DNA of 64,000 nucleotides, from NCBI GenBank assembly GCA_965209035.1, contig OZ242372.1:864001-928000 (forward strand), given 5' to 3'. Position numbers and translations under genes: made by a program. Source of the DNA: Gammaproteobacteria bacterium (GTDB lineage Bacteria > Pseudomonadota > Gammaproteobacteria > CBDBNL01 > JAAOII01). The notes beneath the pieces were generated by a model that saw only the letters and a list, made by a program, of their open reading frames with translations, did not search any database and was not told the origin of the DNA. Shown here one piece after another: positions 231-55,207 of the stretch (position 1 is its first letter; every line of letters begins with the position of its first letter).

Positions 231-346
231 TAAGAAATAACATACATATCTTTTATTTTATGGCATCCGCTTTCAAAATCAACAGCATTGCAAGCATTCA
301 CATCCAAACAAACGCGGATATGCATTCTTTTAGCACACCAAAATTA
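231..346 (+). pseudogene. Degenerate duplicate of the murB upstream region and first ~29 codons
   Basis: Encodes MASAFKINSIASIHIQTNADMHSFSTPKL versus MurB MTPAFNINNLRIQTNADMRSFSTLRL; DNA atccaaac(a/c)aacgcggatatgc(a/g)ttcttttagcac is shared with ~4212-4246. Confidence 0.8.
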
Positions 347-587
347 GGGAATTGCATACTTTGTAACCCATAAAGAAATAAGTGTCATTATTATTACATT
401 AAATGAGAGTTGAGGAGTAATGTATGAGCATGAATACCGGTAAAGGCAAGAAAAAAGAGGGTTATTTTCTGTTCGCGGCCTTCAGAATGGAAGTTTTGGC
501 AGATCAGATCCCCGGGCTGTTTGCCATGGATCTTGAGGCAAATGGCAAATTTTTTGAAGCGCATAGATTGTCAAGTGTATAATTCCC
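347..587. mobile_element. Possible MITE-like element
   Basis: Imperfect terminal inverted repeats gggaattgcatactt (347) and aagtgtataattccc (ends 587), 12/15 match; no long ORF; starts exactly where the murB copy ends. Confidence 0.35.
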
Positions 588-794
588 GGATTAAAAAGGT
601 GTTTAATATAAGCACCGGGGACAGTTTCAAACTGTTTCATTCATTAATGCCAAATGGCTAATGCTCAACCCCCCACTCCAGCCCCAACCTTTAATGTCCT
701 AATACTTACGGGACAATTTTCGGTCGTTCGGGGCGGTTTGAGGTTCGGTGCGAACACGGACACCGACACACAGAGTCCAAAACCGGGTGAGATC

Positions 795-1265
795 GGACAC
801 GTCGGCATTGACCTATTTTCTCGCTTCTCGCTGGTCTGTGTCGAACCTTCCGCTGCTTCGGCCCGTTCCGCCCGGCTGTTTACCGCCATGCAAAATATAC
901 TCGGCGTGCGGATCGAAAAAGTCCTCACCGATAATGGCAGTGATTTCGCCAAAGACTTTCACCGGGTCGTGACAGCAAACGACAGCACCCACTGGCATAC
1001 CCATACTATATTGTTTTTTGGGGAAACCGCAAATGAATGCACACTGCGAACGGTTTAATCGCACTCCCTAAAAATACCTTGGGGGAAGAGTTCGGTTGTC
1101 ATATGCGGCATCTCCTGTTTAAGGAGATGTCGGCATTCAACGCCAAGTTCATCGCATGGCTGGCTTGGTATCATCGCGAACGTCCCCACTATGCTCACAA
1201 ACAACTCTCACCGAATCCGGTTTTTACAAAGACAACAAAAGTCCGAAAATGGGTGGGAATATGCA
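795..1265 (+). mobile_element. IS481-family remnant (3' half, frameshifted) with right end
   Basis: HVGIDLFSR...VLTDNGSDFAKDF and EEFGCHMRHLL...HYAHKQLSP lie in different frames and closely match the intact copy at 20747-21820; ends gggtgggaatatgca. Confidence 0.85.
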
Positions 1266-1373
1266 TGATTTTGAAAATTAAAGTTATAATATTTGAAAAT
1301 TAAAGTTATAGTAATAGTTGAGTGATGTCTCAAAAAAATTAATATTAATCATAATAGAAAACAATAGAAAATA

Positions 1374-3800: not shown

Positions 3801-4175
3801 TGCTGCGTTCATTCGCTAAAAATACATCCGTTTGAGGTTGCATTTGTTGTCATTTAATGAATGTGTGGGATCTCCAAAGAACTTTGGAGTGCGGGTGATC
3901 GCCCGGCTGCGCAGATGCGAAAGATACGCAAGATTCGGAAACTTCTTTATCCCTTATCCTTTAAAGGAAGCAATATGGCCCCACCTGTTTTTTTAGAATA
4001 TGCCCGGCAAGTACTTGGAAAGCACTTGGAATATTATCCGCCCGCAGATCCAACCGCGGGAATCACCGGAACTGCCGAGTCTTCTTTATAAATCTTGCCG
4101 AAGTTAAATGATGAAGCCAAGTGATACGGGCAATGATGATTAAGAATTAACATCCGCATTTTTCGTTTCTTTTAT

Positions 4176-5225
4176 GTGATGACACCCGCTTTCAACATCA
4201 ACAACCTTCGTATCCAAACCAACGCGGATATGCGTTCTTTTAGCACGCTCAGATTAAAAAGCACGGGCGCGGCTGTTTTGTCTGTCACAGATCTGCGTCA
4301 GATCCCGCCGGCAATTCAATATGCCCGCGCCCGGAAACTCAAGGTGGTGCCTCTTGGCGAAGGCAGCAATGTGGTCCTGCCCGTTTTTTGGAAGGTTCTC
4401 TGCCTGCGTATTCAACTTCGGGGAATCAAAAAAATACGAGAAACCGCCGACGCGGTGCATATCCGGGTGGCGGCCGGCGAAAAATGGCATGACCTGGTGA
4501 GATACTGCACCGACAAAGAATGGTTCGGTTTGGAGAACCTGGCATTAATTCCGGGTTCTTGCGGGGCCGCCCCCATCCAAAATATCGGCGCCTACGGCAG
4601 CGAGATTAAAGAATTTCTGACACGCGTGCATCTGATCAAAAGACAGGACGGGACAAGCAAAATTGTCCGGGCGGCCGAATGCGATCTGCAATACCGGACA
4701 AGTTGCTTCAAAAGATCCCGGGCGGAAGCATACATCGTTACAGCCATTGAACTGAAACTCAGCAAAACCCCCAACATCAATCTTGGTTACCAAGAACTGC
4801 AAAAGAGATTACAGGATCTGGGAATTGACAGCCCCCGACCGCGCGATCTGTTCAATGCCGTCTGCCACTTAAGAACAGCCAAACTGCCTTCAACCGAGGT
4901 ACTCGGCAATGTCGGCAGTTTTTTTCAGAATCCAACGGTGTCGACAAGCCGCTTTCGTGAAATAGCGGCCGTCTATCCGAGCGTTAAGGGATACCAAGTA
5001 TCTCCCGCCCGAACTCGCATCGCGGCCGCATCCTTGCTTGAAGTGTGCGGTTGGAAAGGGTTTCGCGCGGGAGACATCGGCGTTTACGAAAAACATGCCC
5101 TGTGCCTGGTGAACTACGGGAATGCCGACCAAAAAATGATCACAGACCTTGCCGAAAAAATGCGCGCCGATGTTCGCAACAGATTCGCGATCCCTCTGGA
5201 GATTGAACCGCGCGTGTATGCTTAA
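4176..5225 (+). CDS. murB: UDP-N-acetylmuramate dehydrogenase
   Basis: LGEGSNV, GLENLALIPG..GAAPIQNIGAYG, GNVGSFFQNP, HALCLVN and LEIEP motifs. Confidence 0.95.
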   Translation: MMTPAFNINNLRIQTNADMRSFSTLRLKSTGAAVLSVTDLRQIPPAIQYARARKLKVVPLGEGSNVVLPVFWKVLCLRIQLRGIKKIRETADAVHIRVAAGEKWHDLVRYCTDKEWFGLENLALIPGSCGAAPIQNIGAYGSEIKEFLTRVHLIKRQDGTSKIVRAAECDLQYRTSCFKRSRAEAYIVTAIELKLSKTPNINLGYQELQKRLQDLGIDSPRPRDLFNAVCHLRTAKLPSTEVLGNVGSFFQNPTVSTSRFREIAAVYPSVKGYQVSPARTRIAAASLLEVCGWKGFRAGDIGVYEKHALCLVNYGNADQKMITDLAEKMRADVRNRFAIPLEIEPRVYA

Positions 5226-5331
5226 AAATGACCGCCACGATAAGAAAGAGATACGGATGACAGAGATCCGCTCAATGATTAAATGATTAAACGATTAATT
5301 GTCACAAGGTCAAGAGTGCTATAATATAAGC

Positions 5332-6238: not shown

Positions 6239-6772
6239 ATGAATGAACGCATCGCGATCGGAGTCCTGACCGGGCGGGAGAGCGGCGCGCCTTCCTCTGG
6301 CACAAAAGACACGAACAGTGCCGGACAAAAGCCGGGAGGAGATGTATTAGTCTGTTGCCGGGCATCTCACCAAAAATGGGCGGGCTATTGGGAGTTCCCG
6401 GGCGGCAAGGTGCGGGCGAATGAGACCGTGTTCCAAGGGCTAAAACGCGAACTGACGGAAGAAATCGGCATTCATTGTCTTGAGGCCGAGTCCCTGGTGC
6501 GGCATACCTATCGCGGCGCGCATCAAGACCCGAATGAAAACCCAAATCCGGATCACCGGCAAAAGACTCTACTGCTTGAATTCTGGCATGTGACAAGATG
6601 GACGGGCGAACCTGTTGGAATGGAAGGGCAAGAAGTTCGGTGGCAGCCTGCGGACGAATTGGCTTCCTTGAAGTTTCTTCCCGGCAACAGACACATCATC
6701 CCCTTTTTGCGTCAATACCTGCAAAGACCGCGCACCGGGAAAACGCCGGAACCTAACTCGGCAGGATCCTAA
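6239..6772 (+). CDS. mutT: NUDIX hydrolase, MutT-like
   Basis: WEFPGGKV....ETVFQGLKRELTEEIG Nudix box; EGQEVRW. Confidence 0.75.
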   Translation: MNERIAIGVLTGRESGAPSSGTKDTNSAGQKPGGDVLVCCRASHQKWAGYWEFPGGKVRANETVFQGLKRELTEEIGIHCLEAESLVRHTYRGAHQDPNENPNPDHRQKTLLLEFWHVTRWTGEPVGMEGQEVRWQPADELASLKFLPGNRHIIPFLRQYLQRPRTGKTPEPNSAGS

Positions 6773-7050
6773 CAAATAAAAAATGTCTTCCAAAGATTCC
6801 ACAGCTTCCGCCTCGCCTCAAAGACCCAAAACTTCCCCGGCTTCCCCGGCTTCCAAAAATCCCCAAATGCATGCCGGCAGGGTGGCGGGGGAAAAACGCC
6901 GGCACCTAACTCAGTCGGATCCTAACAAATAAAAAATGTCTTCCACAGATTCCACAGCTTCCGCCTCGCCACAAAGCCCCAAAACTCTCAAAAATTCCCC
7001 GGCTTCCTCGGCTTCTAAAAAGCCCCAAATGCATACCGGCAGGATGGCGG
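6737..7050 (+). repeat. Tandem duplication of the mutT stop/hemE start junction (period 153 bp)
   Basis: ggatcctaacaaataaaaaatgtcttcc occurs twice (TAA 6770 and 6923; ATG 6783 and 6936). Confidence 0.9.
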
Positions 7051-8063
7051 ATGTGCTTGCCGGCCGTCGACCGGACCGCACCCCTGTCTGGATCATGCGT
7101 CAAGCCGGACGCTACCTGCCGGAATACCGAAAACTGCGCGCCAAAGTCGGCAGTTTTCAAAAACTCTATCGGCAGCATGCCGCCGAAGTCACCCTGATGC
7201 CGCTCAAACGCTATGGCTTGGACGCGGCAATTATCTTCAGCGATATTCTGATCCTGCCGGACGCGCTGGGAATGGAGGTGGAGTTCACCGAAGGTTTGGG
7301 TCCCGTCTTGCAAAAACCCGTGCGGGGCGAAAAATCCTTGGCGGATCTCCGAAGTCCGCATCCGCAGGAAGCCTACCAATATCTGGCGGAAGGAATCAAA
7401 GAAACAAAAGCGGAACTGGCGGCGGATACCTCACTCATCGGTTTTGTCGGCAGCCCTTGGACTCTTGCGGTATATGGCACCCAGGGAAGCGGTTCCAAAA
7501 ACTTCGCAATTACGCGGCGCATGCTTTACGAGCAACCGAAACTCTTGCATTCCTTACTGGAACGCCTCACCCGGGAAGTCATTCAACTCGCCTTGTTACA
7601 GATTCGCGCCGGCGCCGATGTGATACAAATTTTTGATTCATGGGCGGGGCTACTCCCCCGTCATCTCTATGCCGACTTTTCCCTGACATACACGGAGCAG
7701 ATCGTCCGGGAAATACAAGATAAAGCACCCAACACGCCGACGATCCTGTTCGCCAGAGAATGCGCGCTTCCCGTATCGGAACTTGCCAAAATCGGCATCG
7801 CAGCCCTCAGCCTGGATTGGAAAAGCGATATGGGACTGTCTTTTGCCGAAACAAAAGGAAGCGTTGTTTTACAAGGCAATTTGGACCCGGCCGCCCTGTA
7901 TGCCGACGATGCCACTTTGGAAAAAGAGGTGCGGCGGATTCTGGATGCCAAGCCGGCAAATGCCGGGCATATTTTCAACTTGGGACACGGCGTCCCGCCG
8001 GATGTCTCACCCGACAAGATCGCGCTTCTTACGGATCTCGTGCATCGCCTCGGCGAATCTTAA
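6936..8063 (+). CDS. hemE: Uroporphyrinogen decarboxylase
   Basis: PVWIMRQAGRYLPEY, AAIIFSDIL, QIFDSW, LQGNLDP and HIFNLGHG motifs. Confidence 0.97.
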   Translation: MSSTDSTASASPQSPKTLKNSPASSASKKPQMHTGRMADVLAGRRPDRTPVWIMRQAGRYLPEYRKLRAKVGSFQKLYRQHAAEVTLMPLKRYGLDAAIIFSDILILPDALGMEVEFTEGLGPVLQKPVRGEKSLADLRSPHPQEAYQYLAEGIKETKAELAADTSLIGFVGSPWTLAVYGTQGSGSKNFAITRRMLYEQPKLLHSLLERLTREVIQLALLQIRAGADVIQIFDSWAGLLPRHLYADFSLTYTEQIVREIQDKAPNTPTILFARECALPVSELAKIGIAALSLDWKSDMGLSFAETKGSVVLQGNLDPAALYADDATLEKEVRRILDAKPANAGHIFNLGHGVPPDVSPDKIALLTDLVHRLGES

Positions 8064-9120
8064 TCACACCAAGCCGGCAAATGCCGGGGATACTTTTAAC
8101 TTGGGACACGGGATATAAGCCCCGCCGAATGTCTTATGTCTCGCCCGACAAGATGATGCTTCTTACGGATCTCGTGCATCGCCTCGGCGAATCTTAATCA
8201 CACCAAAGACGGCTCGGCAAATCCCGCTTACGCCAAATCCTGCCAATGCTTGCGGATACGCTTTTCCAAGCCGGTAAATGCCGGGAATGTTTTTAACTTT
8301 AACTTGGGACACGGGATACAAGACCCGCCGGATGTCTTATGTCTCACCCGACAAGATTGCGTTTCTTACGGATCTCGTGCATCGCCTCGGCGAATCTTAA
8401 TCACACCAAAGACGGCTCGGCGAATCCCACTTACGCCAAATCCTGCCAATGCTTGCGGATACGCTTTTCCAAGCCGGCGGCATCCAACTTAGGGAATGTT
8501 TTTAGCTTTAACTTGGGACACGGGATATAAGCCCCGCCGAATGTCTTATGTCTCGCCCGACAAGATGATGCTTCTTACGGATCTCGTGCATCGCCTCGGC
8601 GAATCTTAATCACACCAAAGACGGCTCGGCAAATCCCGCTTACGCCAAATCCTGCCAATGCTTGCGGATACGCTTTTCCAAGCCGGTAAATGCCGGGAAT
8701 GTTTTTAACTTTAACTTGGGACACGGGATACAAGACCCGCCGGATGTCTTATGTCTCGCCCGACAAGATTGCGCTTCTTACGGATCTTGTGCATCGCCTC
8801 GGCGAATCTTAATCACACCAAAGACGGCTCGGCAAATCTCGCTTACGCCAAGTCCTGCCAATGCTTGCGGATACGCTTTTCCAAGCCGGCGGCATCCAAC
8901 TCAGGGGATGTTTTTAACTTTAACTTAGGACACGGGATACAAGCCCCGCCGGATGTCTTATGTCTCGCCCGACAAGATGATGCTTCTTACGGATCCTACG
9001 GATCTTGCACATCGCCTCGGCGAATCTTAATCACACCAAAGCCAAAGACGGCTCGGCGAATCCCGCTTACGCCAAATCCTGCCAATGCTTGCGGATACGC
9101 TTTTCCAAGCCGGCGGCATC
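7948..9120. repeat. Tandem array of hemE 3' end + intergenic + dxs 3' end
   Basis: hemE stop context ggcgaatcttaa ends at 8063, 8197, 8400, 8609, 8812 and 9030; dxs stop context ttacgccaa starts at 8228, 8431, 8640, 8843 and 9067. Confidence 0.95.
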
Positions 9121-11058
9121 CAGCCCACAGGATGCCCGCATTTGAGATTGGGTGGCATGCGCGACAAACCGATCATCAATCCCCAGCATCAGAAGATCCG
9201 CGGAGGACCGAATGCCCGCCAAGTAGCCCGCCACAATACTGCCGGCACCGCCATTAATCACATTTTCTTCCACAGTAACCAGCCTGGTATGCCCGACAAG
9301 CAAGCGATCTATTAACTTGGTATCAAGCGGTTTCACCAGACACATATCCGCCAGAGTCCAATCGTATTTCTCCGCCAGTTTGCGCGCTTCGCTCATCGGC
9401 GCGCCAAACACCAGCAGAGCGGGCTTGTGCTTCTTGTCTTTTTTTCCTTCCCGCAAAATTGCGCCGCCGGTCACCGGCCGCTCATCGCGCATCAGCGCGA
9501 CACCTGTGGCGGCACCGCGCGGATACCGCACCGCGACGGGACCCGGCCCGGCCGGCCGCCCCGGCCCCGCCGCCCCGGCATCCCCGGCCGCCGCCTTATA
9601 GCCGCTTGTCAACATTCGGTAGGTCAAATTCTCATCGGAGGGCGTCATAATCGTCATATTGGGGATACACGCAAGATAACTTAAATCATAGGCACCGTTG
9701 TGTGTGGGCCCGTCCTCTCCCACCAGACCCGCCCGGTCAATCGCCAACAACACCGGCAGATTCTGCAAACAGATATCGTGAATCAACTGATCATAGCCGC
9801 GCTGTAAAAAAGTGGAGTAGATCGCCACCACAGGACGCATGCCGCCGCACGCCAAGCCGGCCGCCAGAGTCAGCGCATGCTGTTCGCATATGCCCACATC
9901 ATAGTATCTGTCGGGAAAGGAACGGGCGAACTCAACCAACCCGGAGCCCTCGCACATAGCCGGTGTAATCGCCACTAACCGCGGATCCTTCTCCGCCATA
10001 TCGCAGATCCAGCGGCCAAATACCTGCGAATAGGTCAGCGGTTTGGGGGCGCTCTTTTCACTCTTGGCAGCCTTTGTGTTCACCGGCACAATCTTCGTCA
10101 GCGCATGATAGCCAATAGGATCCTGTTCCGCCGGCGCATACCCCTTCCCCTTCCGGGTTTTGATATGCAGTAACTGCGGCCCCGAAGTTTCTTTAAGGCG
10201 TTCCAACACCTCCGTCAACTCCGGCAAGTTATGCCCGTCCAGTATCCCCGTATAGTTAAACCCCAAAGTTTCAAAAAAAGAACTCGGCGGCAAAAACAGA
10301 TGCTTAATTCCTTCTTCGGTCTGATGCATCAACTCATGGACAAACGGCAACCCCTTAAATCCTTCCTTGAAAAATTGCTTAAGTGTCATATAGGTTTTAC
10401 CGGCAATGAACTTGGAAAAAAATTGAGACAAGGCGCCGACATTGCCGGAAATAGACATCGCATTATCATTGAGGACCACCAACAGATCCGATTTCATCGC
10501 GCCGGCATGATTGAGCGCTTCAAAAGCCATGCCGGCCGTCATAGCACCGTCGCCTATGATCGCCACATGTCTTCGCTGCCGGTTTGAAAGATGAAATGCC
10601 GCTCTTTCCATTCCAAGCGCGGCACTGACAGAAGTGCTGGAATGCCCCGTCCCAAAGGTGTCATACTCGCTCTCCGTCCGACACGGGAAGGGCGCCAAAC
10701 CGTGCCGCTTCCTGATGCTCTCCATTTGCCCCCGCCGCCCGCAAAGAATCTTATGGGGATAGGTCTGATGGCCGACATCCCAAACCAGTTTATCCTCCGG
10801 CGTATCAAACACATAGTGCAATGCCACGGTCAATTCCACCACCCCGAGACCCGCGCCAAAATGGCCGCCGGTCTGCCCGACCGTCCAAAGCAAAAACAGA
10901 CGCAGTTCTTCGGCCAGGGTAACCAAACTTGTCCGGGGTAACCGGCGCAGATCCGCCGGCTTCGCGATGGCATCCAACAAAGGAGTGACCGGTCTTTCTG
11001 TCGGAATGAAAGTTGACACGGCGCGGGTTACGAAAGGTGCGGCCTGCGTCCGTGCCAT
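9067..11058 (-). CDS. dxs: 1-deoxy-D-xylulose-5-phosphate synthase (real start possibly GTG at 11019)
   Basis: GGHFGAGLGVVELT, WDVGHQ, GDGAMTAGMAFEALN, YSTFLQRGYDQ and GEDGPTH motifs. Confidence 0.97.
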   Translation of the reverse strand: MARTQAAPFVTRAVSTFIPTERPVTPLLDAIAKPADLRRLPRTSLVTLAEELRLFLLWTVGQTGGHFGAGLGVVELTVALHYVFDTPEDKLVWDVGHQTYPHKILCGRRGQMESIRKRHGLAPFPCRTESEYDTFGTGHSSTSVSAALGMERAAFHLSNRQRRHVAIIGDGAMTAGMAFEALNHAGAMKSDLLVVLNDNAMSISGNVGALSQFFSKFIAGKTYMTLKQFFKEGFKGLPFVHELMHQTEEGIKHLFLPPSSFFETLGFNYTGILDGHNLPELTEVLERLKETSGPQLLHIKTRKGKGYAPAEQDPIGYHALTKIVPVNTKAAKSEKSAPKPLTYSQVFGRWICDMAEKDPRLVAITPAMCEGSGLVEFARSFPDRYYDVGICEQHALTLAAGLACGGMRPVVAIYSTFLQRGYDQLIHDICLQNLPVLLAIDRAGLVGEDGPTHNGAYDLSYLACIPNMTIMTPSDENLTYRMLTSGYKAAAGDAGAAGPGRPAGPGPVAVRYPRGAATGVALMRDERPVTGGAILREGKKDKKHKPALLVFGAPMSEARKLAEKYDWTLADMCLVKPLDTKLIDRLLVGHTRLVTVEENVINGGAGSIVAGYLAGIRSSADLLMLGIDDRFVAHATQSQMRASCGLDAAGLEKRIRKHWQDLA

Positions 11059-12990
11059 CTATGGGTCGCGCCAACTAACACGCCCGCGTTGCAAATCATA
11101 AGGACTGACTTCCACTTGCACACTGTCGCCGATAAGATGGCATCCAACAAAGGAGTGACCGGTCTTTCTGTCGGAATGAAAGTTGACACTGCGCGGGTTA
11201 CGAAAGGTGCGGCCTGCGTCCGTGCCATCTATGGGTCGCGCCAAGTAACACGACCGCGTTGCAAATCATAAGGACTGATCTCCGCTTGTGCACTGTCGCC
11301 GATAAGAATGCGAATGTCCTTCTTACGCATCTGCCGGGCAAGATGGAGATGGCAATAATCTCTCGTCCGTTCTCCAACCGAATGCGGAACATCGCTTTTA
11401 TTTTTACTGTTATAGAGGAGTTTATTAACAACCTTGCTCGTAACAAAAACAGACGCAGTTCTTTGGCCGGGGTAACCCAACTTGTCCGGGGTGGCCAAGG
11501 CAGTCGACGCAGATCCGCCGGCTTCGCGATGGCATCCGGCAAAGGAGTGACCGGTCTTTCTGCCGGAATGAAAGTTGACACGGCGCGGGTTACAAAAGAT
11601 GCAGCATGCGTCCGTGCCATCTATGGGTCGCGCCAAGTAATAGGGCCGCGTTGCAAATCATAAGGACTGACTTCCACTTGCACACTGTCGCCGATAAGAA
11701 TGCGAATGTCCTTCTTACGCATCTGCCGGGCAAGATGGAGATGGCAATAATCTCTCGCCCGTTCTCCAACCGAATACGAAACATCGCTTTTACTTTTACT
11801 GTTGTAGAGGAGTTTATTAACAACCTTGCCCGTAACAAAAACAGACGCAGTTCTTTGGCCGGGGTAACCCAACTTGTCCGGGGTGGCCAAGGTAGCCGAC
11901 GCAGATCCGCCGGTTTCTCTATGGCATCCGACAAAGGAGTGACCGGTCTTTCTGCCGGAATGAAAGTTGACACGGCGCGGGTTACGAAAGGTGCGGCGTT
12001 CGCCCGCACTTTCTACGGGTCGCGCCAAGTAACACGCCCGCGTTGCAAATCATAAGGACTGATCTCCGCTTGCACACTGCCTCCGATAAGAATGCGAATG
12101 TCCTTCTTACGCATCTGCCGGGCAAGATGGAGATGGCAATAATCTCTCGTCCGTTCTCCAACCGAATGCGAAACATCGCTTTTACTTTTACTGTTATAGA
12201 GGAGTTTATTAACAACCTTGCCCGTAACAAAAACAGACGCAGTTCTTCAGCCAGGGTAACCCAACTTGTCCGGGGTGGCCAAGGTAGCCGACGCAGATCC
12301 GCCGGTTTCGCGATGGCATCCAACAAAGGAGTGACCGGTCTTTCTGCCGGAATGAAAGTTGACACGGCGCGGGTTACGAAAGGTGCGGCGTTCGCCCGCA
12401 CTTTCTATGGGTCGCGCCAAGTAACACGCCCGCGTTGCAAATCATAAGGACTGATCTCCGCTTGCACACTGTCGCCGATAAGAATGCGAATGTCCTTCTT
12501 ACGCATCTGCCGGGCAAGATGGAGATGGCAATAATCTCTCGCCCGTTCTCCAACCGAATGCGAAACATCGCTTTTACTTTTACTGTTATAGAGGAGTTTA
12601 TTAACAACCTTGCCCGTAACAAAAACAGACGCAGTTCTTCAGCCAGGGTAACCCAACTTGTCCGGGGTGGCCAAGGTAGCCGACGCAGATCCGCCGGTTT
12701 CGCGATGGCATCCAACAAAGGAGTGACCGGTCTTTCTGTCGGAATGAAATTTGACACTGTGCGGGTTACAAAAGGTGCGGCGTTCGTCCGCGGCGTTTAT
12801 TTGTCGCGATAAGTAATACGACCGCGTTGCAAATCATAAGGACTGACTTCCACTTGCACACTGTCGCCGATAAGAATGCGAATGTAGTTCTTACGCATCT
12901 TACCGGACAAGGTGGCAATGACCTCTCGCCCGTTCTCCAACCGAATGCGGAACATCGCATTGGGGAGTTTATTAACAACTTTGCCCGTAA
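10890..12990 (-). repeat. Tandem array of infA body/3' end + dxs 5' end: four 392-bp units and one 170-bp unit
   Basis: infA-end motif gtcgcg...cgcgttgcaaatcataaggactga recurs at ~11061, 11231, 11623, 12015, 12407 and 12799 (the real gene). Confidence 0.95.
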
Positions 12991-13021
12991 CTTGAATCAT
13001 TTCTTCTTTTTTTGGCATCAA
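12797..13021 (-). CDS. infA: Translation initiation factor IF-1
   Basis: [13 protein letters not shown]...[34 protein letters not shown]. Confidence 0.97.
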
Positions 13022-13031
13022 ACTATACGCA

Positions 13032-17542: not shown

Positions 17543-17924
17543 GAGGCAAGCAACCTTTAAAGGAGAGGGAAAGGCGAGGTAAAGAAACTTCCAAAGGAGG
17601 GGGAAGAAGCAAAAAAAGAAACTTCCAAAGGCGAGGAAACGACTCAAAACTTCCGCCCCGCCCCAATACGAACGAACAAACAGCGGCTTTTAACTAACCC
17701 AAGATGTTGTGCCCTTCTTTCTTAAGAGGCAAGCAACTTTTAAAGGAACTTCCAAAGAAGGGGGAAGGGTAGAGAAAGGGGCTTCCAAAGGAGGGGAAGA
17801 AGCAAAAAAAGAAACTTCCAAAGGAGGAGAAACGACTCAATTCAAAACTTCCGCCCCGCCCCAATACGAACGAACAAACAGCGGCTTTTAACTAACCCAA
17901 GATGTTGTGCCCTTCTTGCTTAAA
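17543..17924. repeat. ~198-bp tandem duplication upstream of gltB with internal (a)cttccaaag motifs
   Basis: aaaacttccgccccgccccaatacgaacgaacaaacagcggcttttaactaacccaagatgttgtgcccttctt occurs twice. Confidence 0.9.
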
Positions 17925-18083
17925 CCGACTAAACTCTTTTAAGTCGCTTTTTTGGATCCTTAACTTAAAACTGGCGTTGGAGCCTTGCGTCTCTTTCCAA
18001 TACGCCAAGCCCGCTCTGCCCAATGCCTGTCTGACTGAGTGCATTCCAATATGCCGGCAATGGTTGGTTGCCCGAGAACTGAA
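17892..18083 (-). pseudogene. Orphan 3' fragment of the methyltransferase at 23650-24603
   Basis: FSSRATNHCRHIGMHSVRQALGRAG... matches FSSRATNHCRHIRMHSVRQALGKAG; a 1-nt indel gives an alternative tail ending KQEGHNILG*. Confidence 0.8.
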
Positions 18084-20746: not shown

Positions 20747-21820
20747 CTAATAGTTTACCATATTTCTGTATGATCCCACTTGTATTGTATGGTCCCACCC
20801 ATTTCTGGACTTTTGTTGTTTTTGCAAAAATTGGATCGGCGAGAGTTGTTTGAGAGCATAATGGGGACGTTCCAGATTATACCAAGCCAACCACTCGATG
20901 AGTTTGGCGTTGAATGCCGGCATATCCTTAACCAAGAGATGCCGCATATGACAACCGAACTCTTCCCAGAGAGTGCGATTAAACCGTTCGCAGTGTGCAT
21001 TCATTTGCGGTTTCCTTGGATAAGTATACCAGTGGGTGCTGCCGTTTGCGGTCACGATCCGGTGAAAGTCTTTGGCGAACTCACTGCCATTATCGGTGAG
21101 GACTTTTTCGATCCGAGTGCCGAGTATGTTTTGCATGGCGGTAAAGAGCCGGGCGGAACTGGCCGAAGCAGCCGAGGTATCGACATGGACTAGCGCGATG
21201 CGGGAAAATAGATCAATGCCGACATGCCAATAAAAGCGCCGGCCATCGACGATGCGGACGAGCGTATCAAAGGCAACACATTCACCTCTCCGGCCCGCAA
21301 CAAAGCAGATGTCCTTGCGCTCGCGAGGAGCACCTTGCCGCGGGTTCTTCTGCTCGGTCAGCGATGACTGGTGCCGCATCTTACCCGGTGCATCAGCGAT
21401 GATGCGGGCAATGGTTGACCGGCTGGGTGCCGGCAGCCCCTGCTGCTGGCACCATTCGGGTAACAAGCAGACCAGTTTATTGGGACCGATATTCGGTCGC
21501 TCTTGTCGCCAAGACCGGATCTTGTCAATCAGTGCCGGTGGCCAGGTGTTGGACCGCTTGGGCTGATACCCATAGTTGTTCGCCAGTTCATCGACCCCGC
21601 CTTCACGGAAACGCCGCTGCCACTCGTAGAATGTAGCACGACTGATCCCGGCATGATCCAGCGCCGCCGCGACACCATGTTTGCGCGCGAACGCTAAGGT
21701 GTCCAGTTTGATTTTGGTGGTTTTAGACATGTTTGAATATTTGTTTGCTAAAACCACCATTTTATTGAAACCGCGCACGCGATAACCAATGTAGCGTAAA
21801 CGTGTTCCTCTCATTTCCAA
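20747..21820 (-). CDS. IS481-family transposase (HTH + rve integrase core)
   Basis: GISRATFYEW HTH; DDE triad VAFDT / LTDNGSEF / CERFNRTL. Confidence 0.9.
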   Translation of the reverse strand: MEMRGTRLRYIGYRVRGFNKMVVLANKYSNMSKTTKIKLDTLAFARKHGVAAALDHAGISRATFYEWQRRFREGGVDELANNYGYQPKRSNTWPPALIDKIRSWRQERPNIGPNKLVCLLPEWCQQQGLPAPSRSTIARIIADAPGKMRHQSSLTEQKNPRQGAPRERKDICFVAGRRGECVAFDTLVRIVDGRRFYWHVGIDLFSRIALVHVDTSAASASSARLFTAMQNILGTRIEKVLTDNGSEFAKDFHRIVTANGSTHWYTYPRKPQMNAHCERFNRTLWEEFGCHMRHLLVKDMPAFNAKLIEWLAWYNLERPHYALKQLSPIQFLQKQQKSRNGWDHTIQVGSYRNMVNY

Positions 21821-21850
21821 TGTGCAGTCCGGCTGCCCTCACAAACCGTA
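20786..21850 (-). mobile_element. IS481-family insertion sequence (left end not resolved)
   Basis: TGT-terminal end tgtatggtcccacccatttc at 20786, shared with other copies in the window. Confidence 0.7.
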
Positions 21851-22085
21851 CCGTCTCGCCAGCGGATACACCTAGACAGTTTTATCAACAACAAGCCTCC
21901 GCTGTCTGCGGCGGTGAGAGCAAAACAGCTATCCGTCCTTCTTGCCCGTTTCATTCATCTAGCTCCACATACCGAAGACCCGTTGCCGGATCTATTTTCG
22001 ACCCGTCCGACAGAACCTCCGGCTGCTTGATCTGAGGACGCACAATACCAAACTCAGAGTCCAGAACCTTTATGAGACTATGCAT

Positions 22086-34518: not shown

Positions 34519-35655
34519 ATGACATTGATGCACCGGGCAGCCTTTTGGATAGCCCTTTTTTGCTTTTTGGTGATTCTGCCGGAGACCTCTCATGCCACCG
34601 AATATAAAGTAACCGTTCTGGCAAAAAATCTGCCGCAGTCCTGGTCTTTAGTGATTCTGCCGGACCGCCGTATTTTAATTGCCGCTAAAAATGGCAACAT
34701 TGTTTTATTGGAAACGGACGGGCAAACAAAAAAGGCGGGCAAAATATCGGATTCCTTTTCTCACGGGCAAGGCGGGCTAATGGACTTGACGCTGAGTCCC
34801 AATTTTGCCAAGGACTCTCTTGTCTACTATTCTTATACATACAGGGGTGCGGGCGAAAATTTTGGCAAACACGGGACGGCATTAGGCAGTTTTCAATGGG
34901 AAGGCGCCGGCAACAGGATTCGCAACCAACAAACGCTTCTACGAGCCGCCAACCTCGGCTACACCGGCCGGCATTTTGGATCCCGCATCATTTTTGACGA
35001 GCGCGGTTTTTTGTATCTGGCTTTGGGCGATCGCGGCGAGCCGGCTGAGGCACAAAAACTCAACACACACAAAGGAAAGGTTTTGCGTCTTACCCGGGCA
35101 GGCAAGGTGCCGCCGGATAATCCGTTTGTCCATCGCAAGGGGGCGCGTGCCGAGATATACTCCTACGGCCATCGCAACCCGCAAGGAATGATTTTTGACC
35201 CAGGCGCGGACGGCAGCATCTGGCTGCACGAACACGGCCCCAAGGGCGGCGACGAACTGAATCTTATCTTGCCGGGTGCGAACTATGGCTGGCCGGTCAT
35301 TTCTTACGGCATCAATTACGACGGCAGTCGGGTCGGCAAGGGAATCACCGCCAAGCCGGGTATGGAACAGCCGCTCGTGTACTGGGTGCCGTCCATCGCG
35401 CCGTCCGGGATGATTCGTTACAAAGGCGATAAGTTTCCGCAATGGAAAGGCGATTTCTTCGCGGGGGCACTCGCAGGGCGGCATCTGCGGCGCATCATCA
35501 TGCAAGGCGGCAAACCGAGCGGGCAAGAAGAATTACTGGCGGGCGAAGGCCGAATTCGCGCAGTGGCACAGGACAAAGACGGCTATATATATGTCCTGAC
35601 CGATGCAAGAAACAGCAAACTGCTGCGTTTGGAACCGGTCAGCCGGCGTCATTAA
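34519..35655 (+). CDS. PQQ-dependent sugar (aldose) dehydrogenase, YliI/GSDH family
   Basis: GQGGLMD, HFGSRI, SYGHRNPQG, EHGPKGGDELN, NYGWP and WVPSIAPSG. Confidence 0.92.
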   Translation: MTLMHRAAFWIALFCFLVILPETSHATEYKVTVLAKNLPQSWSLVILPDRRILIAAKNGNIVLLETDGQTKKAGKISDSFSHGQGGLMDLTLSPNFAKDSLVYYSYTYRGAGENFGKHGTALGSFQWEGAGNRIRNQQTLLRAANLGYTGRHFGSRIIFDERGFLYLALGDRGEPAEAQKLNTHKGKVLRLTRAGKVPPDNPFVHRKGARAEIYSYGHRNPQGMIFDPGADGSIWLHEHGPKGGDELNLILPGANYGWPVISYGINYDGSRVGKGITAKPGMEQPLVYWVPSIAPSGMIRYKGDKFPQWKGDFFAGALAGRHLRRIIMQGGKPSGQEELLAGEGRIRAVAQDKDGYIYVLTDARNSKLLRLEPVSRRH

Positions 35656-35815
35656 ACAAACAAGGTCTATTTTAAGTTTGGCGGGCGAAGGCCGAGTTCG
35701 CGCAGTGGCACAGGACAAAGACGGCTATATATATGTCCTGACCGATGCAAGCAACAGCAAACTGCTGCGTTTGGAACCGGTCAGCCGGCGTAATTAAACA
35801 AGGTGTATTTTAGAT
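35537..35815. repeat. 142-bp tandem duplication of the convergent dehydrogenase/gabD 3' ends
   Basis: tggcgggcgaaggccga...ggaaccggtcagccggcgt occurs at 35537 and 35679. Confidence 0.95.
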
Positions 35816-49534: not shown

Positions 49535-50826
49535 TAATCTTCAGCCTCCAAACGCAGAAATTTTTCTTTGTATCTAAAATTGGTGCGGGTGTCCGTGGTT
49601 GCCAATCCCTGTTGGACAAGTTTGGCATTGATGAAGGTCTTGTTTTTCAAAAATAAATAGCAGGGCGGCTCTTGGACAGGGTCTGTTGTGGCGGGCTCAA
49701 ACTTGAGAAATACCTTTTGCCCTTTGGTTTTTGCCGTGAGAAATCGCATCGCAAGATGCCGCTGGGGCTGCTTTTCCGTAACGCCGAGAAGTTTGATAAT
49801 GCGTCCGTCGCTTAAACGCACGGATGTCGGACTCAACACCTCTTTGACGGAAAAACATTCGGGGCTGTTGCCCGAGTTTTCCGGTGCTCTGTTACTAATC
49901 CGGGAACCAAAAGTGGCGTTGGCGCGGCTCTCTTTTGGCTTTAATTGATGCGGGTCTTTAAACCTGTATGGAAGAGTTGCCAAGAGTGCCTTGTTGTCCG
50001 GCACAGTGTCGTCAAGAATCAAACTGTCGCCGGGAGACCCCAACCTTTCCAAAATCATTGGAACAAATGCGGGGTTCACTTCATAGGCAACGGAGTTTCT
50101 TTTAAGTTGCTGTGCCACCCCGGAAGTGGTGCCGCTGCCGGCGAAGGGATCCAGAACATAATCGCCAACGAAACTAAACATTTTGATTAATCGCAGGGGT
50201 AGTTCGGCGGGGAACATCGCCAAATGTTTGCCTTGCCGAACTCCCGGGAAGTTCCAATGACCGCAGAAATACCGATTCCATTCTTCGTTTGTGAGAGCGG
50301 AATCTTTTTTGGCAGTTGGTTCCGGCGCGGGTGCGCGCCCTTGTTTCTTAAAAATTAAAATGAACTCGTAGTCCAGTTTCAAAATGCCGTTGCGGGGATA
50401 CGGGAAACTGCCCATCACACTGCCGCCGCCCGTCGTATTCATCGTGGCGGTCTTTTGCCAGATGACCGCCCCCATGTAGTCAAACCCCAGAATCTCGCAA
50501 AACTTGATGATCTCGGTGCGGATGGGTATCACCTTGTAGCGACCATAATGAATTGCCCGGGCATATTGGTCGCCAATGTTAATGCATAAACGGCATCCGG
50601 GAAATAAGACGCGATCACATTCACGCCAAACCATATTGAGGTGATTAATGTAGTCTTCGTAACTATCGTGATAACCAATTTGGCGGGGGTCGCCGTAATC
50701 TTTGAGTTGCCAGTAGGGCGGCGAAGTAACGATCAAATGAATACTCTCGTCGGCTATCTTTGCCATCTTGCGGCTGTCGCCGAGAATGACCCGATGGGGT
50801 GGTGTGTTCGTTTGTGGTGTGTTCAT
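49534..50826 (-). CDS. N4-cytosine-type DNA methyltransferase with C-terminal SNase-like domain
   Basis: VTSPPY, HLAMFP and LDPFAGSGTT; C-terminal VKEVL...IKLLGV...FINAKLVQQGLA. Confidence 0.85.
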   Translation of the reverse strand: MNTPQTNTPPHRVILGDSRKMAKIADESIHLIVTSPPYWQLKDYGDPRQIGYHDSYEDYINHLNMVWRECDRVLFPGCRLCINIGDQYARAIHYGRYKVIPIRTEIIKFCEILGFDYMGAVIWQKTATMNTTGGGSVMGSFPYPRNGILKLDYEFILIFKKQGRAPAPEPTAKKDSALTNEEWNRYFCGHWNFPGVRQGKHLAMFPAELPLRLIKMFSFVGDYVLDPFAGSGTTSGVAQQLKRNSVAYEVNPAFVPMILERLGSPGDSLILDDTVPDNKALLATLPYRFKDPHQLKPKESRANATFGSRISNRAPENSGNSPECFSVKEVLSPTSVRLSDGRIIKLLGVTEKQPQRHLAMRFLTAKTKGQKVFLKFEPATTDPVQEPPCYLFLKNKTFINAKLVQQGLATTDTRTNFRYKEKFLRLEAED

Positions 50827-51185
50827 TTGCCTCCTTACCTACATTTTAAGGCGGACTACCTCGCTTTTTTATAATATTTGATAATTTGATCTGCCATTTT
50901 GCGGCTGTCGCCGAGAATGACCCGGTGGGGTGGTGTGTTCGTTTGTGTTTTGTTCATCTGTGTTTTTTCATTTGACGCCTTGCCAATAGTTTAAGGCGGA
51001 CTACCCTGCTTTTTTATAATATTTGATAATCTCGTCCGTTATCTTGCGGCTGTCGCCGAGAATGACCCGATGGGGTGGTGTGTTCATCTGTATTTCTCCC
51101 ATTTATCGTCGTCATCTCCCCAACATATTGAGACGGGCTGCATTGCTTTTTTATAATATTTGATAATTTGCTTCGCCATCTCATT
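50740..51185 (-). repeat. Small array of pentapeptide-gene 3' end + MTase 5' end (period ~146 bp)
   Basis: gcggctgtcgccgagaatgaccc at ~50770, 50901 and 51046; gcttttttataatatttgataat at ~50863, 51008 and 51145. Confidence 0.88.
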
Positions 51186-52943
51186 TGTGAGAACACCCGT
51201 CGTTGCGCCGGAATTCGGGGGAAGTTGAACACTTTTTTTCTTACCCAAGTGTGGTCTGATGCATTCCATTATCTCATTTATTTTCACAGATTCCACGCCA
51301 CTTTTGATTAGGTTCTGTGCTATCCCGGTGAACTCATTCGCCAAAACCCCGCCGCTAAAAACAGTCGTTGTCAATTCAGTGTCTTTTCCTCGCCTTTTAT
51401 TCATACGATCTTCAAATGCCCAGATTTTTTCGACTTGATCCGGTTTAGGAGGAGAAAATGCTCCCTGCAAACCGGCACCCCCCAAATATGCACCTTGTAA
51501 GCCAGTACTTGTTAAATCCGCACCTTGCAAACTAGCACCTCTTAAATCCGCTCCTTGTAAACCGACGCCTTCTAAATCCGCTCCTTGCAAACCAGATCTT
51601 ATTAAAGTCGCCCTTTGCAAATAGGCACCCTTTAAATTTGCCCCTTGCAAGTTGGCACCTGTTAAATCTGCATCTTGCAAACCGGCACCTCTTAAATCCG
51701 CACCTTGCAAACCGGCACCTCTTAAATCCGCACCTTGCAAACTGGCACCTCTTAAATCCGCACCTTGTAAATAGGGACTGCTTAAGGCTTCTCCCTGCAA
51801 ATAGGCATTCCTTAAATGTGCTCTTTGTAAACTGGCAGTTATTAAAATTGCCCCTTGCAAACGGACACCTATTAAATACGCTCGTTGCAAATCGGCATCC
51901 CAAAAATTCACACCTCGCAAATCGGACCGCACTAGCACTGCTCCTTGCAATTTGGCACCCATTAAATCCGCCTTTTGCAAATCGACGCCTCTCAAAGATG
52001 CTCCTTGCAAATCGGCACCTCTCAAATATGCTCCTTGTAACTTGGTTTCTTTCAAAATCACTTGGCTCAAATTTGCTCGGTATAAATTGGCACGACCCAA
52101 GTCTGCTTTATGTAATTTTGCCTCGGATAAATTAATGTTCATCAAATCCGCTCCGCACAAATAGGAGTCGGACAAATCGAAAACAGGTGCGGTAGAGTCC
52201 GCATTCTGTGGTTTCGTATTAACCTTGCCCCCAAAATTCAAGGCGGCAAAGTTCAAATTTTGATGCTTCCTCTTAATCTTGCCAAGAGCATTCAAAGCAG
52301 TAAAGTCCAAATTTTGTGACTTCGTATTAATCTTGCCAAGAACATCCAATAAAGATTGAATTTCGTTAGAAGGTTTGTCTTTATATGCCGTTTGGTATGC
52401 CGTCTGTCGGGTTGCCTCTCTCAAATGGGCACAAAGAATGTTGACGATGTTAGGCAACCGCTTCGATTCCAAGTTTATCAAGTTATAGAGACCGTAGATC
52501 CCGCCCAAGCGGACAGAATCAGAATTGTCACTTCCCAGATGATTGATCGCGTCGGTAAAAACTTTATCTCGGTTGGCTTGGAAGATAGCTTGGTTAGCTT
52601 CAAAAAGAGCCTGCGCCCTTAAGTAGGCGACAATCAAACCAAATGCACCTATCAGACCGAACAGAGTTAATCCAAGCATCCGAATGGTTAGGGTTTTGCT
52701 ACTCAGGTCGCCTCCGGCTACTTCTGTTCCAAACTTCATATCCAAGTCATTTCCCCAAAGATCAAACATTCTTAGCCCCAAAATGACCAGTACACAACAG
52801 ATCGATATCCCTACAACAACCGAGAAAGTCTTGGCATTACATATATTTTCTATCCTCCACCAAATGAGGCGCAGTTGATTTTTTATCCTCATAAAAAATG
52901 ATTTCGGGATGGATAGCCGACCTGCCGGCTTGTTTGCGTTCAT
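51084..52943 (-). CDS. Membrane-anchored pentapeptide-repeat protein (copy B)
   Basis: Two TM segments, AINHLGS...VRLGGIYGL motif and a long A(D/N)LxG repeat run. Confidence 0.9.
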   Translation of the reverse strand: MNANKPAGRLSIPKSFFMRIKNQLRLIWWRIENICNAKTFSVVVGISICCVLVILGLRMFDLWGNDLDMKFGTEVAGGDLSSKTLTIRMLGLTLFGLIGAFGLIVAYLRAQALFEANQAIFQANRDKVFTDAINHLGSDNSDSVRLGGIYGLYNLINLESKRLPNIVNILCAHLREATRQTAYQTAYKDKPSNEIQSLLDVLGKINTKSQNLDFTALNALGKIKRKHQNLNFAALNFGGKVNTKPQNADSTAPVFDLSDSYLCGADLMNINLSEAKLHKADLGRANLYRANLSQVILKETKLQGAYLRGADLQGASLRGVDLQKADLMGAKLQGAVLVRSDLRGVNFWDADLQRAYLIGVRLQGAILITASLQRAHLRNAYLQGEALSSPYLQGADLRGASLQGADLRGAGLQGADLRGAGLQDADLTGANLQGANLKGAYLQRATLIRSGLQGADLEGVGLQGADLRGASLQGADLTSTGLQGAYLGGAGLQGAFSPPKPDQVEKIWAFEDRMNKRRGKDTELTTTVFSGGVLANEFTGIAQNLIKSGVESVKINEIMECIRPHLGKKKSVQLPPNSGATTGVLTNEMAKQIIKYYKKAMQPVSICWGDDDDKWEKYR

Positions 52944-52991
52944 AAATTACTTTTTGTACTTGTTGTATTTCGTATTAATGCATTGATGCTA

Positions 52992-53183
52992 TTAGTCTTC
53001 GTAACTATCGTGATAACCAATTTGGCGGGGGTCGCCGTAATCTTTGAGTTGCCAGTAGAGCAGCGAAGTAACAATCAAATGAATACTGCTGTCGGCTATC
53101 TTTGCCATCTTGCGGCTGTCGCCGAGAATGACCCGATGGTGTGTTGAGTTCATTTGTGTTTTGTTCATTCGACGACTTGCCAA
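52992..53183 (-). pseudogene. Duplicate 5' fragment of the MTase at 49534-50826
   Basis: HRVILGDSRKMAKIAD.SIHLIVTSLLYWQLKDYGDPRQIGYHDSYED*; SPPY has mutated to SLLY. Confidence 0.9.
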
Positions 53184-53197
53184 TATTTTAAGGCGGA

Positions 53198-55207
53198 CTA
53201 CCTTGCTTTTTTATAATCTTTGATAATCTTATCCGCCATCTCATCCGTGAGAATACCCGTCGTTGCACCGGAATTTGCTGGAAGTTGAAAACTTGCTTCC
53301 CCGCCCAAGTGTGGTTTGATGCGTGCCATTATCTCATTTATTCTCACAGATGTCCTACTACTTTTTGTTAGATTCCGTTCTATCCTATTGAATTCATCCG
53401 CCGAAATCCCGCCGCTAAAAACAGTCGTTATCAATTCAGTGTCTTTTCCTCGCCTTTTATTAATACGCTCTTCAAAGGATTCGGCTTTTCCGGATTGATC
53501 CAGTTTAGGAAAAGAAAAGGCTCCTTGCAAGTAAGCCCCCCCTAAATCTGCTCCTTGCAACCGGGCACTTCTTAAATCCGCTCCTTGCAAATAGGCTCCT
53601 CCTAAATCTGCTCCTTGCAAACCGGCACTTCTTAAATTCGCTCCTTGCAAATCGGCACTTCCTAAATATGCACCTTGTAAACCGGCATCAGTTAAATCTG
53701 CCCATTGCAAACGAGTGCCTGTTAAATTCGCACCCTGTAAACGGGCACCTCTTAAATCCGCACACTGCAAATCGGTGCCCCTTAAATCCGCTTCTTGCAA
53801 ATCGGCGCCGATTAAATCGGCACCTTGCAAATCGGCACCTTGCAAATCGGCACCTCTTAAATCCCCACCTTGCAAACTGGCACTTTCTAAATACGCCTCT
53901 TGCAAACCGGCACCTCTTAAATCCACCCCTTGCAATTCGGCATTTGTTAAATTCACTCTCTGCAAACCGGCACCACCTAAATACGCCTTTTGCAAATCGG
54001 CACCTTTTAAATTTGCTCCTTGCAAATCGGCACCTGTTAAATTCGCCCATAGCAATCTAGCATTTATTAAAATCGCACCCTGCAAACTGGCACCGCTTAA
54101 ATCCGCTCCTCGTAATTCGGTATTTGTTAAATCTGCTCCTTGCAAACTGGTACCACTTAAATACGCATCTTGCAAATTGGCACCTCTTAAACACGCCTCT
54201 TGCAAATCGGCACCGCTTAAACACGCCTCTTGCAAATCGGCACTTATCAAATACGCCTTTTGCAATTCAGCACCACTGAAATCCGCTCCTTGCAATTCAG
54301 CACCATTGAAATCCGCTCCTTGTAATTCGGACTGCATTAATTCCGATCCTCGCAACTTAGCTTCTTCCAAGCTTGCTTTTCTCAGATTCGCCTGGTATAA
54401 ATCGGTACACTCCAAGCTTGCTCGGTGTAATCTTGCCCCGGATAAATTAATATTTTTCAGATCCGCCCCGCGCAGATTAGCTTCTTCCAAACTCGCTTTG
54501 CTTAGATTCGCTTGATATAAATTGGCACACCCTAATTCTGCCCGATGTAACCTTGCCCCGGATAAATTAATGTTTGTTAGATCCGCTCCGCACAGATAGG
54601 AGTCGGACAAATCTAAAAGAGGTGAGGCAAGGTCCAAATTTTGTAACTTCGTATTAATTTTGCCAAGAACATCCAACAAAGATTGGATTTCGTAGGAAGG
54701 CTTATCTTCATATTGTCTCGGGTATTTCGGGTCTTGAGTAATTTCTCTCAAATGGGTACAAAGAATTCTGACAATGTTAGGCGAACGATCTGGTCCCAGA
54801 CCTATCAGGTTATAGAGACCGTAGATCCCACGCAAACGAACAGAAGCGGAATCGTTATTTCCCAAATGATCGATAGCTTCGGCAAAAAACATCTTCTAGG
54901 TTGTGATGATCCTCAAAAATTACCGACTAGTTCTTCTGTCCCAAAGATCAAATATTCTTAGGATCAATATCCCTGTGCCAACCAAGAAAGTCTTGGCATT
55001 AAATCTATTTTTTATTCTCCGCCAAGCGAGTCGCAGTTGATTTTTTATTATCCGCCCGACTCTGTCTGAATAGATCCGAGTCAGATTCCGAAGACGCTCG
55101 CCTTTTGCCTTCCGCCAGGTGAGTCGCAGTTGATTCTTTATCCTCATTAAAAACGATAAAAACGATTTCGGGGCGGACAGCCAGCCTGCCGGCTTGTTTG
55201 CGTTCAT
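53198..55207 (-). pseudogene. Pentapeptide-repeat gene copy A, split into 54920-55207 and 53198-54892
   Basis: N-terminus MNANKPAG matches copy B; stop at 54920, TM region largely missing, frame change near a T6 tract at ~54885; the 564-aa C-terminal ORF is intact. Confidence 0.75.

Follow-up and report, generated by a model that had tools for sequence, protein, structure and literature searches.

Arrays built from the ends of neighbouring genes lengthen intergenic DNA in two genera of a gammaproteobacterial family, probably through untargeted tandem duplication and a selection filter

Deletion bias usually keeps bacterial genomes compact, and it is rare for a lineage to lengthen its spacers by local duplication. 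The nearest precedent is Ehrlichia ruminantium, the host-restricted heartwater bacterium, whose small genome carries an exceptional load of tandem repeats, with repeats in non-coding DNA that lengthen its spacers. Its intergenic tandem repeats were reportedly described by Collins et al. (2005, PNAS) and Frutos et al. (2006, J Bacteriol), and most of its pseudogenes are said to be truncated gene fragments at repeats, with units of ~150 bp gained or lost between strains. One study gives 201 tandem repeats covering 6.3% of the genome, with a mean period of 139 bp, a mean of 4.8 copies and 91.6% match, and 0.38% coverage for E. coli (PMC3287509), and another reports expansion and contraction at tandem repeats in non-coding regions (PMC10710844). 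Here we analyse a stretch of 64,000 nucleotides, called the window throughout, that lies at positions 864001-928000 of the larger contig of a gammaproteobacterial genome (G000:C1:864001-928000), and in which direct repeats made of the ends of adjoining genes, including hemE, dxs and infA, fill the spaces between them. We conclude that such arrays are probably untargeted tandem duplications that arise at a high net rate and are filtered by purifying selection.

Several other repeat systems share some of these traits. Mycobacterial interspersed repetitive units (MIRUs) are tandem units of 40-100 bp between the genes of operons, with stop and start codons inside the unit. They are one sequence at many loci, whereas each unit here derives from the neighbours of its own locus, and the arrays are therefore not a dispersed family of the MIRU, repetitive extragenic palindrome (REP) or miniature inverted-repeat transposable element (MITE) type. 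Tandem duplication-random loss in animal mitochondria likewise involves a boundary-spanning duplication followed by decay of the redundant copies, but whole genes are duplicated and reordered there. Achaz et al. reportedly found an excess of close direct repeats in bacteria, at much lower densities. The variable-number tandem repeats of Wolbachia resemble the present arrays in having periods of 100-150 bp, in lying between single-copy genes and in expanding and contracting; they differ in occupying few loci, with 1.6% of the genome in tandem repeats, and the available text on them does not describe them as made from flanking gene ends. Portiera of Bemisia and related whiteflies shows genome instability after dnaQ loss, and it has mainly 7-bp microsatellites, a genome of 0.36 Mb and many lost replication and repair genes, dnaQ included (PMC3673631, PMC7821994). 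The units described here measure 60-2000 bp and a full-length dnaQ-type gene is present, so that instability of the Portiera type does not apply.

The genome containing the window (G000) measures 2.24 Mb in two contigs at 49% G+C, and has a completeness score of 92.7% despite this two-contig assembly. We compared it with G001, from another genus of the same family, of which 1.98 of 2.318 Mb were scanned, leaving out the last 318 kb (all G001 counts refer to the scanned part), and with 0.4-Mb samples of G002, from a third genus of the family, and G005, from the same order. Dxs identity to G000 is 61-66% in the same-family genomes G001-G004 and only 57% in the closest named genomes, and a tree of dxs alone does not settle whether G000 and G001 are sisters. 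Arrays were called with Tandem Repeats Finder (TRF) at a score of at least 200 and a period of at least 60, merged, and classed as not crossed when no reading frame runs through them; 80 diverse proteobacterial loci (0.964 Mb), gathered for another purpose, served as control. Inside the window, repeats were sought in three ways, by a repeat-family search, TRF and self-blastn.

A preliminary description of the window had pointed to direct repeats of neighbouring gene ends at seven loci, and all seven were recovered (Table 1). It had also held that the parent genes stay intact, which is borne out by their Pfam coverage (URO-D 4-345 of 346, IF-1 1-64 of 64, GSDH 3-332 of 332, Aldedh 4-459 of 461, N6_N4_Mtase 1-219 of 221, and both MurB domains) and by alignment to relatives, which for dxs spans 1-663. 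Between the convergent genes hemE (6936-8063, plus strand) and dxs (9067-11058, minus strand), TRF resolves a period of 121 at 7948-8213 and a period of 203 at 8095-9122 (4.9 copies, 89%), with a higher-order period of 412 at 95%. Alignment shows that each 203-bp unit comprises the last ~25 codons of hemE with the stop, a spacer of ~30 nt and, on the opposite strand, the final ~25 dxs codons. The units are near-identical pairwise, the first with the third and the second with the fourth; this pairing, and the better match at period 412 (95%) than at period 203 (89%), indicate that a later event duplicated a 412-bp block of two units. At the other end of dxs, each 392-bp unit holds the first ~57 dxs codons, a spacer and most of the 3' part of infA (12797-13021, minus strand), and the extra matches to the dxs N-terminus have 85-94% identity. 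The internal 392-bp units (11198-12757, minus strand) each keep a chimeric open frame of 127-140 aa that passes from the dxs N-terminus into an infA fragment, giving four such frames in succession, each longer than the unit itself.

Relatives show what these junctions look like when compact. The gene order hemE> <dxs <infA <gltB is common to G001-G004, with spacers of roughly 40-100 bp (tblastn coordinates) against 1004 and 1739 bp in G000, indicating that the arrays were added as new sequence within the G000 lineage and supporting the earlier proposal that the process creates intergenic sequence. Conversely, five G001 arrays have flanking genes that are adjacent in G000: three of these junctions are compact there (29, 58 and 152 bp), one carries unrelated arrays in both genomes, and one has a 2.3-kb gap and no array in G000. 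The arrays thus arise independently in each lineage, and it is the propensity that the lineages share. The further proposal that duplication separates overlapping genes stands at one locus only, read by eye, where the GSDH and gabD-like genes would overlap by ~17 nt as a single copy.

The pattern is not confined to the window, as the preliminary description had left to be seen. Whole-genome TRF analysis of G000 yielded 169 merged arrays, 118 of them crossed by a reading frame; periods are divisible by 3 in 112 of these 118, and in 202 of 208 frame-crossed arrays in G001, identifying them as protein repeats. The remaining 51 in G000 are not crossed (22.7 per Mb over 2.24 Mb, 3.1% of bases). This class numbers 163 in 1.98 Mb of G001 (82 per Mb, 6.9% of bases), 109 of them non-dispersed, but one in 0.4 Mb of G002 (2.5 per Mb), two in 0.4 Mb of G005, and none of period at least 60 across the 80 control loci (0.964 Mb). 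In-frame arrays inside genes (periods 84, 102 and others) occur at 50-80 per Mb in G000, G001 and G002 versus 1 per Mb in the control loci, with densities of 52.6 per Mb in G000 and 57.5 per Mb in G002; the repeat-type proteins of the window include fn3, TSP_3, GLUG and pentapeptide families. The small contig C2 (65.7 kb, 54% G+C) has no array of period at least 60, although its length would lead one to expect ~1.5, and it lacks the 1.3-kb insertion sequence (IS) described below.

The 51 uncrossed arrays of G000 are not protein-coding repeats: frame-crossing is excluded by their selection, and the 37 non-dispersed ones have no preference for periods divisible by 3 (residue classes 14/16/21 for the 51, 11/10/16 for the 37, and 27/47/35 for the 109 in G001). 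All-versus-all blastn of the 51 units found similarity only among 14 arrays of IS or dispersed families, mostly the 1.3-kb IS, consistent with the earlier view that the units are unrelated to one another and form no mobile repeat family; of the other 37 units, 30 have no match elsewhere in the genome and seven have 1-3. All 37 lie between robust gene calls, and 25 contain copies of the terminal 60 nt of a flanking gene whose parent is anchored in unique DNA, as do 50 of 109 in G001. Five of those 25 hold copies from both flanking genes, and copied ends are 3' rather than 5' in 18 versus 12 cases in G000 and 40 versus 22 in G001. Median periods are 203 bp (G000) and 157 bp (G001), with a spread of 60-1157 bp and no preferred size. 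The length of gene inside the array runs from 2 to 246 nt among the 24 non-dispersed arrays below whole-gene scale that have a flanking gene end inside, and reaches 886 nt in an array of period 986. Convergent (3'-3') junctions hold 13 of the 37 arrays in G000 against 11% of all junctions (p 9e-5), and 24 of 103 in G001 against 12.7% (p 0.003). Twenty-seven of the 37 also lie within 400 kb of the GC-skew minimum of G000 (~1.15 Mb, where the strand bias of genes flips too; p 8e-6), but origin-proximal clustering was dropped as a general feature, the corresponding G001 figure being 42 of 109 against 30.8% of scanned bases (p 0.05).

These arrays resemble those of E. ruminantium in several respects. 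With basic TRF settings, tandem repeats cover 4.46% of G000 when merged (6.6% when summed), 11.2% of G001 (18%) and 0.12% of the control loci; the resulting shares of 4.5-6.6% and 11-18% compare with 6.3% for E. ruminantium at the same settings (PMC3287509). The units, with the median periods given above, likewise sit between genes, and at the hemE/dxs/infA junctions of G000 they lengthen the spacers. Truncated fragments of neighbouring genes, said to occur at the Ehrlichia repeats, are present in the 25 of 37 and 50 of 109 arrays counted above. E. ruminantium is an alphaproteobacterium and the present arrays belong to a gammaproteobacterial family, so their origin is independent. Coding density is lower in E. 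ruminantium than in G000 (~86% by a crude count). The finding is thus an independent gammaproteobacterial instance of a phenomenon known from E. ruminantium, and the statement in the preliminary description that nothing of such density had been described in bacteria was too strong, given that precedent (PMC3287509 and PMC10710844). A literature search over the available parts of articles, with supplements outside its reach, turned up no account of junction-built arrays in a gammaproteobacterium.

We propose that ordinary, untargeted tandem duplication of segments of 60-2000 bp would make the arrays, by a route that is likely to be slipped or template-switch replication, or illegitimate recombination with little or no homology, and that existing units would then multiply by unequal exchange. 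The net rate of this process would be unusually high in the G000 lineage and in G001, through raised formation or raised retention. Purifying selection would eliminate the duplications that break a frame. Those that survive would be either in-frame, within genes whose products put up with repeats, or placed with both ends in two different neighbouring genes or in the spacer. In the latter case, intact gene copies would stay at the outer edges while the truncated ends between them decay. Copies in G000 are 75-98% identical, and 21 of 69 gene-end copies carry net frame-shifting gaps.

Random placement reproduces the observed classes once frame-breaking events are removed. A null model that places the observed periods at random with random frame predicts that approximately 28.8% fall at junctions or between genes, 23.6% inside genes in frame and 47.5% inside genes out of frame. 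Of 60 young non-dispersed arrays (at least 90% match), 30 are not crossed, 27 are in-frame and three are crossed with a period not divisible by 3; the ratio of junction to in-frame arrays is 30:27 against 1.2:1 in the null, and the missing class is the frame-breaking one only. Because this split fits random placement minus the frame-breaking class, no gene-end mechanism is needed. Of the two options offered by the preliminary description, the data fit a lineage-wide tandem-duplicator state with survival of harmless copies, as judged from the excess of all kinds of array, the frame pattern and the null model; an undescribed mechanism acting at gene ends is superfluous, as the null model fits and the gene length captured is so variable. 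In our reading, the filter has a further layer that favours convergent junctions, since the copying of two 3' ends leaves promoters and operons undisturbed.

Several results weigh against this account. Differences between extra gene-end copies across G000 are enriched at third codon positions (115, 112 and 196 for the three positions), an excess not expected from simple neutral decay; it could come from units budding one after another from a selected parent, from gene conversion, or from selection on chimeric frames. Breakpoint microhomologies, tabulated for 17 young two-copy arrays, were uninformative, with overhangs scattered from -46 to +45 nt and seven of the 17 between 0 and 12. Junction classes and null fractions are approximate, since the gene calls came from a crude, self-made codon-usage finder. 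The enrichment at convergent junctions could reflect mechanism, through a link to converging transcription, rather than selection. Finally, the high rate is left without a cause both by an inventory of 13 repair and recombination families and by weak selection as proxied by dispersed repeats, a candidate that was rejected because it does not track the arrays.

The remaining loci of the window vary the same theme. The start of hemE needs care, because its Pfam domain begins at residue 35 and relatives align from residue 31-39; the conserved part thus begins at about residue 35, and translation may not really start at the codon that lies in the period-152 unit. The longest hemE frame adds a Ser/Pro/Ala-rich N-terminal extension of 34 residues (6936-7040) that neither the Pfam domain nor the relatives have and that, judged by its sequence, is probably spacer DNA from older small duplications rather than coding. 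The 2.3-kb duplication at the methylase and pentapeptide genes resolves into the pairs 50651-50897/52993-53239 (90.7%), 51041-51772/53107-53832 and 52856-52992/55111-55256, and smaller copies of period 131-145 lie within it at 50761-51095. The window ends within a 23S rRNA gene (61571-64000, minus strand).

Table 1. Repeats made from gene ends in the window, with one mobile element for context (window coordinates)
Feature	Position	Strand	Evidence
Decayed copy of murB 5' end	249..336	+	parent 4168-4246; blastn 79.5% over 88 nt
mutT-like NUDIX 3' end, spacer and region upstream of/at hemE start; two copies, period 152	6737..7050	+	6737-6888 vs 6889-7050, 86% over 162 nt
hemE 3' end/dxs 3' end array: period-121 duplication, then ~5 units of 203 bp	7948..9134	+	TRF, repeat families, alignment
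dxs 5' end/infA 3' end array: period 392 x 4.7 plus period-170 sub-duplication	10891..13004	-	TRF (10891-12958, 93%), repeat families, open reading frame list
Two-copy tandem duplication upstream of gltB, period 194	17588..17923		93% over 143 nt
Copy of 3' end of gene 23650-24603 (parent segment 23632-23769), 5.7 kb away	17948..18083		blastn 89.9% over 138 nt
3' ends of convergent GSDH dehydrogenase and aldehyde dehydrogenase (gabD-like); two copies, period 142	35537..35801		97.6%
2.3-kb tandem duplication: DNA methylase 5' end, spacer and whole pentapeptide-repeat gene	50651..55256	-	self-blastn, Pfam
1.3-kb IS copy, rve/HTH_32 transposase; context only, outside junction arrays	20786..22085	-	Pfam, blastn

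Two of the gene-end repeats are dispersed rather than tandem, and for these alone another origin deserves weight. The murB 5' copies lie 3.9 kb apart, hence not in tandem, and enclose an IS remnant (rve) and a gene for an fn3-repeat protein (Pfam). The copy at 17948-18083 and its parent segment likewise flank a block holding a 1.3-kb IS and a repeat-protein gene (Pfam); the parent had been labelled a methyltransferase, and while the repeat near gltB is real, the gene at 23650-24603 has no Pfam match to confirm the label. Each pair thus encloses an IS copy or remnant together with a secreted-type repeat-protein gene, as would be expected if a mobile block had brought the gene end with it or duplicated it, much like an island inserted between attL/attR-like borders. 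We regard this origin as possible though somewhat unlikely: no integrase besides the IS transposase was seen in either block, the pairs can be explained just as well by a small tandem duplication and a later insertion, and only one of the 21 full-length IS copies in the genome lies inside an array, a count that also lends no support to the suggestion that arrays serve as safe insertion sites. Directly downstream of the GLUG/TSP_3 repeat-protein gene of the second block (18713-20740, minus strand), between it and the gene-end copy at 17948-18083, are ~12 copies of a T-rich repeat of 32-40 bp (18166-18700). The 1.3-kb IS (rve/HTH_32 transposase) occurs in 21 full-length copies (85-100% identical) and 19 partial ones, all on C1, with tandem copies at two places.

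A mechanism specific to gene ends, such as template switching at terminator hairpins, converging transcription, or collisions between replication and transcription, would make selection something other than the main filter. It would account for the 2-3 fold over-representation of convergent junctions in G000 and G001, for the more frequent copying of 3' than of 5' ends in both genomes, and for the CCGG(C/T)AAATGCCGG hairpin with a T-rich tract that is found in every other unit (u1 and u3) of the hemE/dxs array. We nevertheless consider it quite unlikely. The junction share among young arrays equals the random-placement share after removal of frame-breaking events, and in-frame arrays inside genes are in equal excess; the captured gene length varies (2-246 nt), the periods (60-1157 bp) have no preferred size, and terminator-like sites in 6600-13100 number 8 against 8.7 in shuffled sequence, which is no excess.

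Untargeted duplication at a high rate must also be set against the view that no rate is raised at all, and that the arrays accumulated through weak selection and weak deletion in a host-restricted lineage of small population size. Such a lineage might be suspected from the small genome (2.24 Mb, 92.7% complete in two contigs), the 21 full-length and 19 partial copies of a single IS, the many eukaryote-like repeat proteins of G000 (fn3, TSP_3, pentapeptide and repeats of 102-bp period), and the persistence of copies down to 75% identity. The comparison within the family nonetheless makes this very unlikely. G002, of similar size, matches G000 in dispersed load (4.6% versus 4.5%) and in in-frame arrays (57.5 versus 52.6 per Mb), yet has 2.5 rather than 22.7 uncrossed arrays per Mb, while G001 combines the fewest dispersed repeats with the most arrays. 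Selection is also evidently strong enough to clear frame-breaking arrays. Dispersed-repeat load, a rough proxy for weak selection measured on equal samples (4.5% in G000, 1.3% in G001, 4.6% in G002 and 2.1% in G005), does not track the arrays, so that weak selection alone is an insufficient account.

An assembly artefact, in which the assembler multiplied repeats that exist only once in the cell, is extremely improbable, given that the copies differ by 2-25%, a divergence that assembler duplication does not yield, and, most tellingly, that the genome of another genus (G001) shows the same pattern at higher density. Logan unitigs, contigs built from raw runs by a different method, were compared with the window over 5000-15000. 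One unitig (5484-8053) spans the period-152 duplication and matches it with 0 differences. Unitigs inside the arrays are 2.5-2.8 times as deep as the flanks (32.3 versus 11.7 in one run, 81 versus 29-35 in another), and no unit-skipping joints were reported; both large arrays interrupt the unitigs, which is usual for repeats. The three public runs behind these results come from a single sample, may be the source of the assembly and are hence not independent of it, and a run from another study (a 95-99% similar strain) covers the stretch at only ~1x, too thin for copy number.

The search for what might raise the rate covered repair and recombination genes in five genomes. Eleven of the 13 families were found in G000, where they look intact; recA, mutS, mutL, recJ, xseA, sbcB, a dnaQ-type epsilon subunit, recO, an AddAB-like pair and uvrD are present with open frames, the dnaQ-type match covering 1-224 of 231 in a frame of 239 aa. 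Ten of the 13 occur in all five genomes, with sbcB missing only from G001. RecC and canonical RecQ were not found in any of the five, and since these include array-poor genomes, neither absence tracks the trait. Loss of a repair gene was rejected as the cause, as no family among the 13 separates array-rich from array-poor genomes and the inventory brought up no explanatory loss. Also rejected was a RecQ-like match in G002 and G003 as RecQ, since it combines DUF559, DEAD and Helicase_C domains without RQC or HRDC, and it is absent from G000, G001 and the array-poor G005; in G002 it is a 648-aa protein (G002:C1:42001-45500, 50-1996) with a DUF559 (Vsr-like) N-terminus and a RecQ-like DEAD/Helicase_C core. 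Two of the genes found have features of their own. The MutL C-terminal domain match covers 1-118 of 142 (G000:C1:2059588-2059944), and an IS copy starts ~400 bp further on (2060357). The uvrD gene (G000:C1:338710-341464) carries an array of 116 bp x 4.9 at its 5' end, and its open frame is 795 aa long against 709-746 aa in four relatives.

A bolder reading, which we put forward as rather doubtful, is that tandem duplication or expansion is a heritable trait of two genera that is lacking in a third of similar genome size, repeat-protein content and IS load, that none of the 13 canonical functions explains it, and that it favours convergent junctions. If the difference were truly one of mutation and not of retention, an undescribed determinant would set how often segments of 60-2000 bp duplicate. 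Candidates would include a component of the replisome or the nucleoid, and template switching at converging transcription units, and the trait would have arisen in parallel with that of E. ruminantium. In that event the arrays would keep supplying new intergenic sequence and chimeric frames, the four dxs-infA fusions among them.

Worked out here are the anatomy of the junctions, the frame test, the null model and the contrast between array-rich and array-poor genomes within one family. The arrays are likely to serve as strain-typing markers, and they are points at which short-read assemblies break. The family offers a clean, genome-scale view of selection as a filter, in which only the frame-breaking duplications are missing. 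Two of its genera are rich in arrays and a third, with a genome of similar size, is poor in them, which gives the family a natural contrast for finding what sets the rate of tandem duplication, and lineages of this kind show how new non-coding DNA, regulatory space and chimeric frames can originate without horizontal transfer.

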